From NCBI GenBank assembly GCA_903825105.1, contig CAIJZI010000003.1:1-35007 (forward strand): a stretch of 35,007 nt of DNA. The letters are read 5' to 3'. The notes under the pieces were generated by a model. It was not told the origin of the DNA, did not search any database, and saw nothing but the letters and a program-made list of their open reading frames with translations. The stretch's first letter is position 1. Each line of letters opens with the position of its first letter. This DNA comes from an uncultured bacterium. Lineage in GTDB: Bacteria; Patescibacteriota; Minisyncoccia; Phycocordibacterales; Phycocordibacteraceae. The position numbers and the translations under genes were made by a program. Positions 25,090 to 31,320 of the stretch are shown here, piece by piece.

Positions 25090-27603
25090 ATGTTCGGCAT
25101 ATCCAAGCTTTTTACGAAGAATGAGTCAGCGTCCTTCTTAAAGGCCGCGGCACCTATCGTGGTAGCGACAAATGCTTTTTCTGAAGAATTCCGAGTGCTC
25201 TCCGATGAAGACCTTCGTGCGCGATTCAAAGAAATATACGATCAATCGCGAGAGGTGAGTGTTGCTTCTGAAAAAGATATTCCACTTATCTTTGCACTCG
25301 TGCGGGAAGCGTCTCGTCGCACACGAAATGAGTTTCACTTCGATGTTCAACTTATCGGCGGACTCGCGTTGCTTCGTAGTAAGGTAGCGGAGATGCGCAC
25401 AGGAGAAGGGAAGACGCTTGTTGCAACTCTCCCAGCTACTTTCCATGCACTGTCGGGGAAAGGAGTGCAAATTATTACGGTCAATGATTATCTCGCGCGG
25501 CGTGATACCACTTGGATGGGGCAGGTGTATGACTTCCTTGGACTCACAGTTGGCGTAGTGACCTCAACAGGCTCATATCGCTACGATGCGTCGCATATCT
25601 CAAAAGAAGAAGACTCTGAACGAGACGCAGAAGGATCGTTCAAAGTCTTCTATGACTATTTGCGCCCAGTGACAAAGAAAGAGGCATACGCCTGTGACAT
25701 CACCTATGTGACGAACAATGAACTCGGCTTCGATTATCTTCGCGACAACACTGCGTATGACGCTTCTCAAATCGTTCAGCGAGGATTTCACTATGCGATT
25801 ATCGACGAAGTGGATTCAATTTTAATTGATGAGGCGCGTATGCCGCTTATCATCTCTGGGCCGTCGGGCGATTCACAGATGTTTTATGAAAAATTCGCAG
25901 AGATTGTCAGGGGGATGAAAGAGGGAGAGGATTATGCTGTAGATGAAAAACAAAAAGCGATTCAGATAACCGAAGAAGGAATGCATAAGGCCGAAGTGGC
26001 GCTCGGACTCGAAAATATTTATACCGAAGGCGGGATTAAATATGCACACCATCTCGAGACCGCGGTGCGCGCACAAGCCCTTTTCTTTAAAGATAAAGAA
26101 TATGTCGTACGCGATGATGAGATTATTATTGTCGATGAATTCACGGGGAGAATGCAGCCCGGGAGACGCTGGTCAGACGGACTCCATCAGGCGATTGAAG
26201 CAAAAGAGGGTGTGAAGATTCAAGCAGAAACGCGCACATACGCGAGTGTCACCTTTCAAAATCTTTTTAGAATGTATGAAAAGCTCGCTGGAATGACCGG
26301 CACAGCGCTCTCTTCAGAAGAAGAATTTTATACCGTTTACAAGCTTGAAGTCGTTGTAGTGCCGACAAATAAACCATCGCTTAGAAAAGATCATAGTGAT
26401 CTCGTATTCCAAACGGCGAAAGGGAAATATACTGCGGTTGCGCGCGCGGTGAAGGAGCGTTATCAGAAAGGTCAGCCGGTATTGGTTGGTACCGTTTCGG
26501 TTGAAGATAATGAAATTGTCAGCGAATACTTAAAAGATGCGGGCGTTCCGCACGAAGTGTTGAATGCGAAGAATCACGAGCGCGAGGGAGAGATTATCGC
26601 CGAGGCGGGTAAAGAGGGAAGAATAACGGTCGCGACTAACCTCGCTGGTCGTGGCGTCGACATTAAACTCGGCGGTGCACTCGCCTCGGCAGAAGAGCGT
26701 GCTTCGGTCATCGAGAAGGGCGGGCTTATGGTTATCGGTACCGAGCGACACGACGCTCGTCGTATCGACAACCAGCTTCGCGGGCGTTCGGGACGACAAG
26801 GCGACCCAGGCGAAACGCGCTTTTATGTATCTCTTGAAGATAAGTTGATGCGCGTCTTCGCGGCTGACACCTTGAAAAAGGTGATGGGCCGTTTTGGCAT
26901 CCCTGAAGATGAGCCAATCGAGAGCGGGATCATTAGTAAGTCGCTTGAGACCGCACAGGGTCGAATCGAAGGATATAACTTCGACTCGCGTAAACAAGTC
27001 CTCGCGTATGACGATGTGATGAATACCCAGCGTCTCGCTATTTATGCACGCCGACGCGCGGCGCTTACGGGCACACCAGAAGAGGTAGAAGATATTTTTA
27101 ATATGCTTATTGAAGAGAGCGAGACGGCAAAAATCGCTTTCAATACAAAGAAAATAGAGCTCGATGATGACTTTGTCGATCACCTGCGCCGCCTTCTGCT
27201 CCAGGCAGTTGATGTCTTCTGGCTCGAACATCTAGAGACGATGGACTATTTGCGTAAATCGGTGTCGCTCCGCGCTTATGGCCAGCGTGATCCATTAATA
27301 GAATACCGTCGCGAGGGGCTCATCAGATTCCGCCAGCTTGAAGCAGACATTAAAGCAAAGGTACTAGAGGTATTGCCGTTTCTCCAGCGAGCTGATGATG
27401 CGCGTATTCGCGCAGAAGAAGAAAAGATTCGTGCCGCGATGATTGCCGCAGGAAAAGAAGAAGGGAGCGCGCAGCCGATTAAGAAGAGTGGTGAACACGG
27501 GCGAAACGATATTGTCACGATTAAAAAAGGCGACGAGACAAAAGAAATAAAATATAAAAAAGCCGAACCCTTCATCAACAATGGTTGGACCATTGTTGAA
27601 TAA
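25090..27603 (+). CDS. secA: Preprotein translocase ATPase SecA
   Basis: EMRTGEGKT, TVNDYLA, IDEVDSILIDEARMPLIISG, GRRWSDGLHQAIEAKE, LNAKNHERE, ATNLAGRGVDI and RIDNQLRGRSGRQGDPG. ATG 25081 overlaps the -10 box, so 25090 is preferred. Confidence 0.97.
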   Translation: MFGISKLFTKNESASFLKAAAPIVVATNAFSEEFRVLSDEDLRARFKEIYDQSREVSVASEKDIPLIFALVREASRRTRNEFHFDVQLIGGLALLRSKVAEMRTGEGKTLVATLPATFHALSGKGVQIITVNDYLARRDTTWMGQVYDFLGLTVGVVTSTGSYRYDASHISKEEDSERDAEGSFKVFYDYLRPVTKKEAYACDITYVTNNELGFDYLRDNTAYDASQIVQRGFHYAIIDEVDSILIDEARMPLIISGPSGDSQMFYEKFAEIVRGMKEGEDYAVDEKQKAIQITEEGMHKAEVALGLENIYTEGGIKYAHHLETAVRAQALFFKDKEYVVRDDEIIIVDEFTGRMQPGRRWSDGLHQAIEAKEGVKIQAETRTYASVTFQNLFRMYEKLAGMTGTALSSEEEFYTVYKLEVVVVPTNKPSLRKDHSDLVFQTAKGKYTAVARAVKERYQKGQPVLVGTVSVEDNEIVSEYLKDAGVPHEVLNAKNHEREGEIIAEAGKEGRITVATNLAGRGVDIKLGGALASAEERASVIEKGGLMVIGTERHDARRIDNQLRGRSGRQGDPGETRFYVSLEDKLMRVFAADTLKKVMGRFGIPEDEPIESGIISKSLETAQGRIEGYNFDSRKQVLAYDDVMNTQRLAIYARRRAALTGTPEEVEDIFNMLIEESETAKIAFNTKKIELDDDFVDHLRRLLLQAVDVFWLEHLETMDYLRKSVSLRAYGQRDPLIEYRREGLIRFRQLEADIKAKVLEVLPFLQRADDARIRAEEEKIRAAMIAAGKEEGSAQPIKKSGEHGRNDIVTIKKGDETKEIKYKKAEPFINNGWTIVE

Positions 27604-27651
27604 GCACGAAATCCGAAGCACGAAAAACGAAACAAGCACCAAGCACCAAAA
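27601..27651 (+). repeat. Left heptamer-repeat arm of the four-helix-bundle cassette
   Basis: t-AAGCACG-AAATCCG-AAGCACG-AAAAACG-aaac-AAGCACC-AAGCACC-aaaa, running from the secA stop to the ATG. Confidence 0.85.
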
Positions 27652-28017
27652 ATGAAGACGGAGAAAACAAAACAATACGATCTGGAAGAAAGAACAATGA
27701 GATTTGCCAGCGAAGTGCGCACATTCGTACGACTGTTGCCGAAATCAATCGCGAATCGTGAAGATACGAGTCAGGTAGTGAGGTCTTCAGGTTCAGTAGG
27801 AGCAAATTATATCGAGGCAAACGAATCGTTAAGCAAAAAGGATTTTGTGATGCGTATAAAAATCTCCCGCAAAGAAGCGAAAGAAACTGCTTTTTGGTTA
27901 AAACTCATTGACACTGGCGGCAACGCCTTACTCGAAGAAAAGCGAAATGCGCTACACCAAGAAGCTCGGGAATTAATGTTCATATTGAGTTCAATTATGA
28001 GAAAATTTGAATCCTAA
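27652..28017 (+). CDS. Four-helix-bundle protein (23S rRNA IVS-protein / TIGR02436-type family)
   Basis: DLEERT..F...V, QVVRSSGSVGANYIEA, SKKDF..RIKISRKEAKETAFWL; 121 aa. Confidence 0.92.
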   Translation: MKTEKTKQYDLEERTMRFASEVRTFVRLLPKSIANREDTSQVVRSSGSVGANYIEANESLSKKDFVMRIKISRKEAKETAFWLKLIDTGGNALLEEKRNALHQEARELMFILSSIMRKFES

Positions 28018-28030
28018 TTTTTTTATTTCT

Positions 28031-28067
28031 AATTTGTTTCGGATTTCATGCTTCGTGCTTAGAATTT
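28031..28067 (-). repeat. Right heptamer-repeat arm (inverted) of the four-helix-bundle cassette
   Basis: Reverse complement reads AAATTCT-AAGCACG-AAGCATG-AAATCCG-aaac-AAATT, the same units as the left arm. Confidence 0.85.
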
Positions 28068-28089
28068 CCACTCGTGCTAGAGTGGCTGT

Positions 28090-29064
28090 ATGGCATTCGT
28101 GGACGAGATCAGGATATACGCGGAGTCGGGGAAAGGTGGCGACGGGGTCGTCCGCTGGCTCCATACCAAGACAAACGCCCGTGGCGGGCCATCGGGAGGC
28201 GACGGGGGCAGGGGCGGCGACGCGGTGCTTCTTGGTGTGCGCGATTATGCGGCTCTAGCGCACTATCGTTTTGAAAAAAAGTTTTGTGCAGAAAAGGGAG
28301 AAGACGGTAAAAATAATTTAAAGCACGGCGCGAACGGTGCAGATATCTTGATACGCGTACCCGTAGGCACTGTCGCGCGTGTTATTGATACCGGCGTTGA
28401 ATACGAAATGACCAAAGAAGATGAGAGGATCGTTATCTTCCGTGGGGGAATGGGTGGTAAAGGTAATGCCCGTTTTAAGAGTTCTACCAATCAAAACCCA
28501 TTTGAATTAACAAAAGGTAAGGATAATAAAGGTGGCGATATCGAGCTTAGTCTTAAGATTATCGCAGATGCTGGGCTTATAGGGCTCCCTAATTCAGGGA
28601 AGTCGTCTCTTCTTAATGCGCTCACACAAGCCAAGTCTATTGTCGGTGATTATCCTTTTACGACGCTTGAACCGCATCTCGGCGACTTCTATAGACGAAT
28701 ACTGGCGGACATCCCAGGGCTTATTGAGGGGGCCTCGTCTGGAAAAGGGCTTGGTATAAAATTTCTTAAGCACATAGAACGCACAAGGATTCTGCTACAT
28801 CTCGTCTCGGCTAGCCAAGATGACCCTATCGCATCATATAGAGAAGTACGCAATGAGGTTGAACTGTTTGGGCGCGGCTTACCTGACAAGAAGGAGATCA
28901 TTATCCTGTCAAAAATAGACCTTATTTCGCCCGAAGAATGCGAAACTAAAAAGCAGCTCCTTATACGCGAGACAGGCAGGGAAGTGCTCCTCGTCTCAAT
29001 AAAAGACCCGGTCGTTCTTAAAGAGTTTTCAGATCGACTTACGAAGCTCCTTGATATAAACTAG
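28090..29064 (+). CDS. obgE: GTPase ObgE/CgtA (short form)
   Basis: MAFVDE...SGKGGDG, GGPSGGDGGRGGD, GLPNSGKS, YPFTTLEPHLG and DIPGLIEGAS.GKGLG..FL.HIERT. Confidence 0.96.
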   Translation: MAFVDEIRIYAESGKGGDGVVRWLHTKTNARGGPSGGDGGRGGDAVLLGVRDYAALAHYRFEKKFCAEKGEDGKNNLKHGANGADILIRVPVGTVARVIDTGVEYEMTKEDERIVIFRGGMGGKGNARFKSSTNQNPFELTKGKDNKGGDIELSLKIIADAGLIGLPNSGKSSLLNALTQAKSIVGDYPFTTLEPHLGDFYRRILADIPGLIEGASSGKGLGIKFLKHIERTRILLHLVSASQDDPIASYREVRNEVELFGRGLPDKKEIIILSKIDLISPEECETKKQLLIRETGREVLLVSIKDPVVLKEFSDRLTKLLDIN

Positions 29065-29075
29065 AGATATCCCTT

Positions 29076-30518
29076 ATGGAGTATCTCCCGACCATCGGTC
29101 TCGAAATCCACGCTGAACTTAAAACGCGAACGAAGATGTTCTGCTCCTGTGCGAATGATCCAGATGAGTCGCGTCCCAATGTAAACATCTGTCCGATCTG
29201 TTTGGCGCATCCGGGTACGCTCCCGACGATTAACAAAGAGGCGGTTAAACAAGTACTTCGCGTTGGCGTAGCAGTAAATGGAACGAGTGCAGACGCGAGT
29301 GAATTTGATCGGAAGAGTTATTTTTATCCCGATATTCCAAAAGGGTATCAAATCAGTCAGTATGCGCGGCCACTTATTTCTGGAGGATCTCTCGCTGGCG
29401 TTTTGCTCACGCGCATCCACCTCGAAGAAGATACGGCGCGCTCGATACATCTCGAGGGCTCAAGCGCAGTTGATTTTAATCGTGCGGGGGTGCCGCTTAT
29501 GGAGCTCGTGACTGAGCCAGTAATACACGACGCAGAGACGGCAGGGAATTTTGCACGCGAGCTACAACTTCTACTACGAACCCTTAATGCGGGAGAAGCA
29601 AATCTTGAAAAAGGAGAAATGCGAATCGAAGCAAATATCAGTGTTGCAAAGCACGAAGCATCAAATACGAAATCCGAAATGGATACAAAATTGGGCACAA
29701 AAGTAGAAGTCAAAAATTTAAATTCATTTCGCTCGGTTGAACGCGCAATTGATTTTGAAATAAAAAGACAGATCGCTCTTATCGAGAGTGGTGGAGAAGT
29801 GCGCCAAGAAACGCGTGGGTGGAATGAGTCGAAGCAAGAGACCTTTCATCAGCGTTTTAAAGAAGACAGCGCAGACTATCGTTATTTCCCCGAGCCTGAT
29901 TTACCCAAGCTCGCGCTTTCTGAAATTGACACATTTTCTGTCGAAGCACTCAAAGCATCATTGCCCGAGCTCCCGTGGAATCGCCGTGCACGATATGTCG
30001 ATACTTACGGCATAAAAGAAAGTGACCTCGCTTATTTGTGTGCGACAAAAGAGCGCAGTGATTTTTTTGATAGTGTCGCATCAGAACTAGAAAATAAAAA
30101 TGAACTTGTAGCGCTCGCGGTAAATTATATTGTTTCGGATCTCGCGGGCATCGTAGCCAAAAGCGGTAATGATACGGTATCTAAATTAACGCCAAATACT
30201 TTTGCAAAGATGATTCGGCTCATTCAAGATGGAGTGATTTCTTCACGCGGTGCAAAAGATCTTCTGTATATACTCGTTGAGTCAGGCGGCGAACCAGAGA
30301 CAGTCGCGGCAGAGAACGGGCTTATACAGATCCACGATGATGCGGTGCTCGGAGAGGCAGTGGATGCAGTAATCGCGGCAGAGCAGAAAGCCGTACTTGA
30401 GTATAAAGCAGGGAAGCAGGCAGCTCTACAGTATCTCGTTGGTAAGGCTATGAAGGAGAGCCGCGGCGCAGGGAACCCCACAGAGTTGCAAAGGCTTCTC
30501 GTAGAAAAACTGGGTTAG
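29076..30518 (+). CDS. gatB: Asp-tRNA(Asn)/Glu-tRNA(Gln) amidotransferase subunit B
   Basis: IGLEIHAEL, FDRKSYFYPD.PKGYQISQY, RIHLEED, DFNRAGVPLMELVTEP, VEVKNLNSF and DYRYFPEPDLP, with a YqeY-like C-terminus. Confidence 0.97.
   Translation: MEYLPTIGLEIHAELKTRTKMFCSCANDPDESRPNVNICPICLAHPGTLPTINKEAVKQVLRVGVAVNGTSADASEFDRKSYFYPDIPKGYQISQYARPLISGGSLAGVLLTRIHLEEDTARSIHLEGSSAVDFNRAGVPLMELVTEPVIHDAETAGNFARELQLLLRTLNAGEANLEKGEMRIEANISVAKHEASNTKSEMDTKLGTKVEVKNLNSFRSVERAIDFEIKRQIALIESGGEVRQETRGWNESKQETFHQRFKEDSADYRYFPEPDLPKLALSEIDTFSVEALKASLPELPWNRRARYVDTYGIKESDLAYLCATKERSDFFDSVASELENKNELVALAVNYIVSDLAGIVAKSGNDTVSKLTPNTFAKMIRLIQDGVISSRGAKDLLYILVESGGEPETVAAENGLIQIHDDAVLGEAVDAVIAAEQKAVLEYKAGKQAALQYLVGKAMKESRGAGNPTELQRLLVEKLG
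29649..29680 (+). repeat. Heptamer-repeat tract in frame inside gatB
   Basis: AAGCACG-AAGCATC-AAATACG-AAATCCG-AAAT encodes KHEASNTKSEM, with the same units as the cassette arms. Confidence 0.75.
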
Positions 30519-30573
30519 CTATAAAAGTGCATAAGCTGTTCCATTCCAGACGAGATATGTATATACTGCCTGT

Positions 30574-31320
30574 ATGGATGAGATTTTTATAGAAGAAAAA
30601 AAATATATATCGTCAAAACAAGCGGCAAAGGTTACGGGGTACGCCAAGGACTATATAGGGCAACTTTGTAGAGAAGGGCGTGTGCCGGCAAGGCTCGTGG
30701 GTAGGAATTGGTATGTTCTAGAGACGGCGATTCAGGATCACCGTTTTGGAGATTCTGAAATGGAACAAGGAGATACAGAAAAAGGAGAAGAGGCTATATC
30801 TGAGATACCAGAACCAGTAAATCCTGCTGCGAGCGGCATACAAGAGTCATGGCAAGCATGGTTTGACCGTGTTGATACGGCAGTAGAAAAGCCAACTGAA
30901 TCAGTCGAGTCTGAGAAGATGGAGATCGAAGTTGTTGAAGATAGCCCAATAGAGCAAGAGACTATAGCTGAAGAAGAGAGTGAGCCGGAGAAGCCTGTTG
31001 TAGACAGTATTGAAGCAACGGTTGTGCCGATACGCACAATAACTGCAGAGCCTAAGGCGTACTCGATTCCGGAGGACTTGTTGCCGAGGAACAATACAGA
31101 GTCTCCGCTTGTCGTTGGACGTGCCCGTACAGTGCGAAAAATAGGGAAGAGGCACGCACTTACTTTTCTCCGCGCTATAGAGATAACGGGCGCAGTTTTT
31201 GCCACGATCTCTTTAGTTGTAGCGGCTCTCGGCACAGGATACTTCGATCATTATGTGCTCTCGAATAGTCAAGCAAGTGTTTTGTCGGGAGTATCACTCT
31301 ATAATAAAGCGCTTAAATAA
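30574..31320 (+). CDS. Excisionase/MerR-type (HTH_17-like) HTH protein with acidic linker and C-terminal TM helix
   Basis: YISSKQAAKVTGYAKDYIGQLCREGRVPARLVGRNWYV; E-rich disordered middle; hydrophobic ITGAVFATISLVVAALGTG near the C-terminus. Confidence 0.8.
   Translation: MDEIFIEEKKYISSKQAAKVTGYAKDYIGQLCREGRVPARLVGRNWYVLETAIQDHRFGDSEMEQGDTEKGEEAISEIPEPVNPAASGIQESWQAWFDRVDTAVEKPTESVESEKMEIEVVEDSPIEQETIAEEESEPEKPVVDSIEATVVPIRTITAEPKAYSIPEDLLPRNNTESPLVVGRARTVRKIGKRHALTFLRAIEITGAVFATISLVVAALGTGYFDHYVLSNSQASVLSGVSLYNKALK

Follow-up and report, generated by a model that had tools for sequence, protein, structure and literature searches.

An in-frame heptamer-repeat arm in a GatB loop of a Kaiserbacteria-like bacterium, shared with a dispersed family of inverted repeats

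Selfish repeats that lie in frame within essential genes are known from textbooks as a peculiarity of Rickettsia. The Rickettsia palindromic elements (RPEs), reportedly described by Ogata et al. in 2000 and 2002, are palindromes of 100–150 bp that are inserted whole into genic and intergenic DNA; in essential genes they lie in frame, are translated as a surface peptide, and are tolerated, carrying no stops and sitting in permissive loops. Tandem heptanucleotides are known from cyanobacteria, where the short tandemly repeated repetitive (STRR) sequences, said to go back to Mazel et al. in 1990, form dispersed families without a known function and are reported chiefly as arrays between genes that serve for fingerprinting. 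Heptamers also occur in the 23S rRNA intervening sequence (IVS) of Coxiella, as tandem GACAGAT units of variable number upstream of the S23p open reading frame (ORF), and RNase III cuts at the first repeat (PMC4990558). Here we analyse an array of 7-base units within gatB, the gene for subunit B of the Asp/Glu-tRNA amidotransferase, in a 35,007-nucleotide stretch of DNA (the window) from an uncultured bacterium (GenBank assembly GCA_903825105.1, contig CAIJZI010000003.1). The genome, here called G000, comprises 600 kb in nine contigs, of which the window is C3; its closest named relatives are metagenome-assembled genomes (MAGs) of Candidatus Kaiserbacteria / Paceibacteria, and the host is an ultra-small, Kaiserbacteria-like bacterium. 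Labels of the form G### denote genomes of relatives and L### further gatB loci or genomes. We consider it probable that in the gatB tract a heptamer hairpin family of the IVS type has a copy that is translated and tolerated, sits in a permissive loop and is kept family-like by copying from other arms.

The gatB gene (29076–30518, + strand) is an intact ORF of 480 amino acids with Pfam matches to GatB_N (2e-101) and GatB_Yqey (5e-34), and its best structure match is PDB 3h0l_B (E = 2e-106). The tract, AAGCACG AAGCATC AAATACG AAATCCG AAAT, occupies positions 29649–29680 on the + strand as a lone arm in sense orientation. It lies in frame within 16 loop codons (29646–29693, + strand) that encode AKHEASNTKSEMDTKL between EANISV and GTKVEVKN, and the loop proper, between NISV and LGTK, is AKHEASNTKSEMDTK, of 15 amino acids; sequence, position, frame and loop length all agree exactly with an earlier note on this DNA made from its letters alone. 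AAGCACG, AAATACG and AAATCCG are canonical units and AAGCATC is irregular, so that the tract stands among the arrays of at least three AA..CG units. As read off the sequence, canonical AANNNCG units are free of stop codons in all six frames, and the arm can therefore be read through as protein. Compared with the insert-free loop of G017, the alignment gives a net gain of about 27 nucleotides, and the nine or so residues added are hydrophilic. Opposite the loop, the solved GatB structures 3h0l and 3al0 have an 8-residue gap in the alignment. In the AlphaFold2 (AF2) model, with a mean predicted local distance difference test (pLDDT) score of 85, residues 195–205 fall below 50 and lie between β-strands 182–192 and 210–215; the tract is thus predicted to occupy a disordered surface β-hairpin loop of GatB.

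The same units recur elsewhere in the genome. The tract has an exact 13-mer, AAGCACGAAGCAT, in common with the right arm of a cassette about 1.6 kb upstream, as the earlier note had stated for the units of the two, and an exact 17-mer, CAAATACGAAATCCGAA, in common with an arm in a helicase gene on contig C7. Arrays of at least three units of AA[AGT][CTA][ACT]CG form seven arms at five loci, whereas shuffled sequences gave 0.05, and the expectation that such tracts exceed chance held. A chance origin of the tract was considered and is ruled out by this census together with the exact 13- and 17-mers common to distant arms; local slippage is ruled out by the 13- to 17-mers that recur in intergenic and distant arms. 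The intergenic paired arms mostly fold as imperfect hairpins, with z mostly between −3 and −6. No local hairpin was found in gatB, as a fold of the tract with 40 nucleotides on either side gave z = −1.5, and since that fold has no significant structure, the gatB copy is a lone arm.

The cassette (27602–28062) is the first of the five loci and consists of inverted arms enclosing a PF05635 gene of the four-helix-bundle 23S rRNA intervening-sequence protein (S23p) family (27652–28017, + strand; 52.8 bits against a cut-off of 33.8). It is flanked by secA and by the gene for the GTPase obg (28090–29064, + strand), which separates it from gatB. Its left (5') arm (27602–27650, + strand) overlaps the secA stop codon and reaches the ATG of the PF05635 ORF, and its right (3') arm (28033–28062, − strand) is inverted relative to the left. 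The secA stop shares bases with the first arm unit, as TAA-GCACG (window 27599–27603). The gatB tract is the second locus, the third is an ORF-less hairpin on C7 between the release-factor and L31 genes, the fourth is a hairpin on C2 at the 5' end of a pilin-like gene, and the fifth is the lone coding arm in the C7 helicase gene. Across 27000–31000, Rfam gave no match at E ≤ 1.

Other proteins besides GatB carry peptide of this origin, as the earlier note had supposed they would. The helicase arm (C7:7484–7511, − strand, in ORF C7:7154–8839) continues into the tail AAACAAATTAAAAATTCAAA and encodes ANTKSEARNSKQIKNSK in the linker before the C-terminal helix-turn-helix; at the same place G010, G001 and G009 also have arms, and other relatives have REP-like (repetitive extragenic palindromic-like), GC-rich or other hairpins. 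A degenerate arm, AAGCACC AAGCACC AAATCCG AAGAACC with the tail AAACAAATCTCAA, lies at C9:71591–71640 within TsaD (C9:71097–72314), where it adds 13 amino acids in frame in the loop after HMEGH. It is common to G000, G010 and G009 and is not found in the sisters G001 and G023; elsewhere the TsaD site holds REP-like hairpins (G011, G024), a different hairpin (G017) or an AATTTCA heptamer array (G036). At C2:2431–2530 and C2:3027–3067, a complete AANNNCG/AAGCTCG hairpin is translated within a pilin-like leader, as MSMSMKIRNPKSEARNESIFGFRASSFELRAKRG followed by YTLIEL, and an array of AATTTTC heptamers lies in the leader of the pilin gene that follows. The earlier note spoke of a genome-wide repeat system, of which the dispersed family is real, but it is small, with five canonical loci and this one degenerate copy in TsaD. 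We also observed in-frame ACCTTNN / AAGGTNN heptamer arrays in YbeY (C9:58945–58981), a UvrD-like helicase (C8:8686–8725) and an 810-residue ORF (C6:55602–55660), two of which are full hairpins.

The GatB loop is short in most bacteria compared here. It has 6–7 amino acids (e.g., SKDDTF) in most of 30 relatives, and at 76 further loci it has 6–8 amino acids in 57, 9–11 in 10 and at least 16 in nine. In a concatenated three-protein tree G001 is sister to G000 (96/99) and G023 is sister to G010 (100/100), and among the gatB loops of these four genomes the AANNNCG arm is found only in G000 and G010. The loop of the close relative G017 has no insert, and that of G001 has a REP-like palindromic doublet, AAGGTCAGACCTT...AAGGTCTGACCTT, in place of the heptamer arm. 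The arm in G000 gatB is, on these alignments, lineage-specific, and the insert coincides with the tract, as had been proposed. Four-unit AANNNCG arms in the same phase, beginning right after the first loop codon, occur in six genomes (G000, G010, L140, L149, L150 and L178, the last distant at 57% identity), and all six have AAATCCG, without variation, as their fourth unit. In the family an inner tail AAACAAAT(T/C) comes after the last unit. At this site G010, L149 and L150 have the tail, as AAACAAATTC, and G000 has AAATGGATACAAAATTG in its place, which looks more like the native loop.

In other genomes the same loop is filled by other repeats, and in every genome the insert preserves the frame. 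A REP-like doublet of the AAGGTCWGACCTT type lies there in frame in G001, G006 and G031, and its motif forms a dispersed family in 10 of 41 genomes. L152 has a four-unit AGNNNGC array (e.g., AGTAAGC AGAATGC AGTAGGC AGTAAGC), and G023, L153 and L154 have related, more irregular AGNNNGC-type arrays. The three-unit AGNNNGC pattern matches 12 times in G016 and five times in G001, and its backwards-read control matches in no genome; by these counts the AGNNNGC family is real and dispersed. Well-supported sisters differ in unit family at gatB twice, G010 from G023 and L150 from L153/L154. The earlier note would have given up its interpretation if relatives without the family had equally long loops. 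Such loops exist, but they are built of REP-like doublets or AGNNNGC heptamers, and long loops made of other repeat families support a permissive or hot site instead.

Two further observations concern these families. In the G001 loop (L008, contig C74) the spacer between the two REP-like hairpins is GAGGATTCGGATTT and includes TTCGGATTT, the reverse complement of AAATCCGAA, which might be what is left of a former heptamer arm or be due to chance. The control pattern GCNNNAA (AANNNCG read backwards) in three units has 16–17 matches in G033 and G039, two members of the same taxonomic order, which suggests that these two genomes hold yet another heptamer family.

The arms are conserved at the level of nucleotides. 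Between G000 and G010 the gatB DNA is 63% identical, with third positions saturated at 36%, whereas the core of the gatB arm is identical at 30 of 33 positions and at 9 of 11 third positions (p = 0.003). Third-codon identity is 12/17 in the helicase arm against a background of 45% (p = 0.03), and 14/15 in the TsaD arm against 41% (p = 3e-5). The six gatB arms vary only at unit positions 3–5, with AA..CG fixed, and they do so by swaps of whole blocks (GCA, ATC, ATA) with no intermediates; this 7-nucleotide pattern of variation is not attributable to codon-level selection. The encoded peptides diverge where the DNA framework holds, as in AKHEASNTKSE versus AKSEARSAKSE. On these comparisons the arm is conserved as nucleic acid, not as peptide. 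Conservation far above the synonymous background, together with swaps of whole units, points to ongoing copying or a constraint on the nucleic acid, not to a decaying scar. The suggestion that the family either spreads on its own or is left behind as a footprint is accordingly too passive in its second half.

Evidence that repeats are copied into genes comes from G023 (JBAYHD01), where a single 30-nucleotide module (AGT GAG CAG GAA GCA GGA GCA GGA ...) occurs in gatB (C4:~10715), in the helicase linker (C10:~4395) and in the DnaK tail (C2:~35867). The copies are identical at 25–26 of 30 positions, stand in the same frame, share an irregular 6-nucleotide unit, and encode S(E/K)Q(E/Q)AGAG(G/R)(S/G); compared with G000, DnaK carries its copy as an insertion. 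The module is small, and the idea of a large GCAGGAG family in G023 was set aside: the 12-mer occurs only three times, always in coding sequence, and strict AGNNNGC in three units only once. The TsaD loop of G013 holds a stretch similar to the module.

The earlier note tied the repeats to the upstream cassette while letting the family spread on its own. The independence is borne out, as copies occur with and without the four-helix-bundle gene, and the tie to that gene is loose. Across relatives, PF05635 genes have inverted heptamer arrays on their flanks, and the unit differs from gene to gene. In G000 a second PF05635 gene (C8:6524–6826) is flanked by A/T-rich ATTTAAA-type heptamer arrays and not by AANNNCG. 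In G010, 22 three-unit AANNNCG matches (counted in overlapping windows) accompany only one weak PF05635 match, beside a reverse transcriptase (RT). Tight coupling of arms to the PF05635 gene was rejected, in that arm abundance does not track PF05635 copy number and G010 is the genome richest in arms. RT genes were noted in G000 (C1:11458–12066), G010 (C8:1691–2863), G001 (C65:724–1892) and also G023. The RTs of G010 and G001, each beside a weak PF05635 (Avd-like) match, look like diversity-generating retroelements (DGRs), distinct from the heptamer cassettes. Rewriting of the DGR type was set aside for the arms, because G009 has arms and no RT match and because the variation of the units is not adenine-specific.

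How the tract came to lie in gatB can be pictured as follows. It is one arm, of four 7-base units and the start of a loop-side tail, of a heptamer-built inverted-repeat family whose full copies are imperfect intergenic hairpins, the largest of them enclosing a PF05635 gene like an ORF-bearing rRNA IVS. The arm may have arrived by templated copying from a family member, through insertion of a hairpin whose antisense half was then lost or through a microhomology-primed copy of a single arm. Gene conversion would since have overwritten it again and again with the sequence of other arms; its likeness to the family, the exchange of entire units and, in some lineages, the change to the AGNNNGC family would all follow from this. 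To the protein the arm would be a tolerated passenger.

Heptamer elements near gatB bear on this picture and on its main competitor. In G010, L149 and L150 gatB is closely preceded by an AANNNCG hairpin, the G000 cassette lies 1.6 kb upstream beyond obg, and L152 has AGNNNGC hairpins on both sides; G010 has AANNNCG hairpins directly up- and downstream of gatB, where neither its sister G023 nor G000 has any, a sign that the family is mobile. In G010 (C44 ~5097, ~6685) the obg stop overlaps or lies within the first arm unit, TAAGCACG, and the arm of the downstream hairpin supplies the last gatB codons and the stop, after AKLNSKH. Six genomes have a heptamer element near gatB, and in five of them (G000, G010, L149, L150 and L152) that element lies no more than 2.5 kb away and shares its unit family with the internal arm. 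This match fits local gene conversion or a pairing function and proves neither. Within ±3 kb, the best complement to the gatB tract is the 3' arm of the cassette (28033–28062, read on the + strand like the tract), with 25 bp, one 7-nucleotide bulge and an energy of −35.7 kcal/mol, where the null gave −24.2 ± 2.1. The G000 internal arm pairs with the cassette 3' arm at −38.5 kcal/mol, compared with −30.4 for the cassette's own two arms, and the internal arm likewise out-pairs the 5' partner of the flanking 3' arm in L150 and, at the downstream hairpin, in G010 and L152. The internal arm might be a functional cis-RNA element whose distant pairing partner is the antisense (3') arm of another hairpin on the same transcript, making an alternative structure (for example, an RNase III substrate, or a switch between terminator-like hairpin and open form) that tunes expression of gatB or obg. 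The conservation of the arms at third codon positions and the cleavage of the Coxiella IVS by RNase III at its first heptamer (PMC4990558) are in keeping with such an element, which we nevertheless regard as unlikely. Same-family arms in opposite orientation are always complementary, so that family membership alone suffices for the pairing; the pairing is specific to the family (AANNNCG versus AGNNNGC) and not to the genome, with no genome-specific advantage on the matrix diagonal within the AANNNCG family. Moreover, the lone arms of the helicase and TsaD have no antisense arm on their contigs (census), and L140 and G023 have an internal arm and no flanking hairpin. A wider form of the idea, which we hold to be doubtful, is that the arms in coding loops are a maintained cis/trans system, in which templated copying, by directed gene conversion or arm-writing, matches the gatB arm to the unit family of the flanking hairpins that are its long-range RNA partners, for instance in RNase III-dependent control of obg–gatB. 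If true, it would explain the third-position conservation, the block-wise swaps, and the switches between AANNNCG and AGNNNGC among sisters at one fixed site.

The apparent conservation would mean less if the arms were young, that is, if family members had entered the same loop by site-specific insertion separately, and not long ago, in every lineage. The distribution of the arms on the tree is patchy, with at least three changes forced by well-supported branches and sisters that differ; insert-free relatives have native-looking loops of 6–7 amino acids; the family was active after the split of G010 and G023; and the native loop DNA, TCGAAAGAT..., has a CGAAA motif like a unit junction that could seed insertion. 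However, the irregular AAGCATC in second place, the length and the phase are common to the arms of G000 and G010, which favours common descent of that pair, and the agreement of six genomes in the boundary, the number of units and the unvarying fourth unit would call for very precise targeting. We judge recent independent arrival improbable, and it overlaps copying from other arms rather than excluding it. The extended loop could also be an adaptation of the protein, with the peptide selected (e.g., for a transamidosome contact) and the repeat-like DNA incidental or due to slippage. The loop is hydrophilic, always in sense orientation, and in frame in every genome, but its peptide is not conserved (AKHEASNTKSEMDTKL and AKSEARSAKSEINSGL of L140 are identical at 8 of 16 positions, though the DNA framework is kept), its third positions exceed the background, and its conservation follows the 7-nucleotide unit and not the codon. 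In addition, the loop is disordered in the AF2 model, other genomes fill it with unrelated hairpin repeats, and the 13- to 17-mers common with intergenic arms cannot stem from local slippage; selection for the peptide seems to us very improbable indeed.

Several observations weigh against copying from other arms as the explanation. No insertion or conversion event was seen directly among the genomes compared, and the arm could equally well be conserved because an RNA or DNA function is under selection or because independent insertions happened recently. A unit specific to one genome speaks for copying: AAATACG is found in three arrays of G000 (gatB, helicase and the C7 hairpin), the 58 units sampled in G010 include none, and the G010 orthologues of the gatB and helicase arms carry AAGCACG where G000 has AAATACG. 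The comparison is weak, at 3/24 versus 0/58 (p ~0.02 by simple arithmetic). Genome-wide overwriting was predicted to reach TsaD in G023 and failed there, the loop being native-like and without the G023 module. L153 is an exception to the match of internal and nearby elements, with an AGNNNGC-like internal arm and, 1 kb downstream, a cassette of AANNNCG units. A tree of GatB alone resolves the clade poorly, and counts of gain and loss are rough. Finally, in a comparison with miniature inverted-repeat transposable elements (MITEs), the cassette ends read TAAGCACG...CGTGCTTA, but inspection of four elements found no consistent flanking target-site duplication.

Set beside the known systems, the gatB repeat shares with RPEs that it is short, dispersed, translated and in frame in an essential gene, and belongs to a family both genic and intergenic. 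Unlike an RPE, it is a single arm of about 30–45 nucleotides made of 7-nucleotide units with no local partner, it is kept or rewritten as nucleotides, and its unit family switches between sister genomes. The likeness to RPEs drawn in the earlier note holds for the way of working (in-frame, translated, tolerated) and not for the structure, which is no palindrome; homology to the RPE-1 to RPE-10 consensus sequences is not expected in a Patescibacteria MAG. The cassette, with its PF05635 gene between inverted arms, resembles the IVSs with an S23p ORF of Coxiella burnetii and Leptospira, the Coxiella heptamers likewise adjoining the ORF (PMC4990558), but the present elements lie in protein operons and coding sequence instead of rRNA, and the gatB copy has neither ORF nor second arm; RNA excision inside gatB would be lethal. 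With the REP/REPIN-RAYT systems (REP doublets forming hairpins and REP-associated tyrosine transposases) the family has in common short, dispersed hairpin repeats, and REP-like doublets use the same GatB loop in relatives; the heptamer arms, however, are tandem 7-nucleotide arrays, whereas REPs are single palindromes of 20–35 nucleotides. STRRs are likewise dispersed families of tandem 7-nucleotide units, but their description, as far as our literature search showed, includes neither inverted-arm hairpins nor a link to PF05635 nor coding copies in frame. That search found no paper on RPE-like in-frame repeats or in-frame heptamer arms in Patescibacteria, and none tying heptamer arrays to coding inserts. 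In sum, the observation of the earlier note is confirmed and its interpretation is partly supported.

An outcome like that of Rickettsia is thus reached in Patescibacteria by a different and little-studied class of repeat, 7-base arrays tied to the gene family of the rRNA intervening sequences. The gatB case adds to this a coding copy conserved as nucleic acid, the swapping of units and unit families at a fixed site, and the match to hairpins around gatB. If only gene conversion among selfish copies is at work, the arms show how new loop peptides enter essential proteins of very small genomes, and such loops should then not be taken for adaptive features. If directed copying or RNA pairing is true, the finding would bear on the purpose of S23p/IVS elements and of tandem heptamer repeats.

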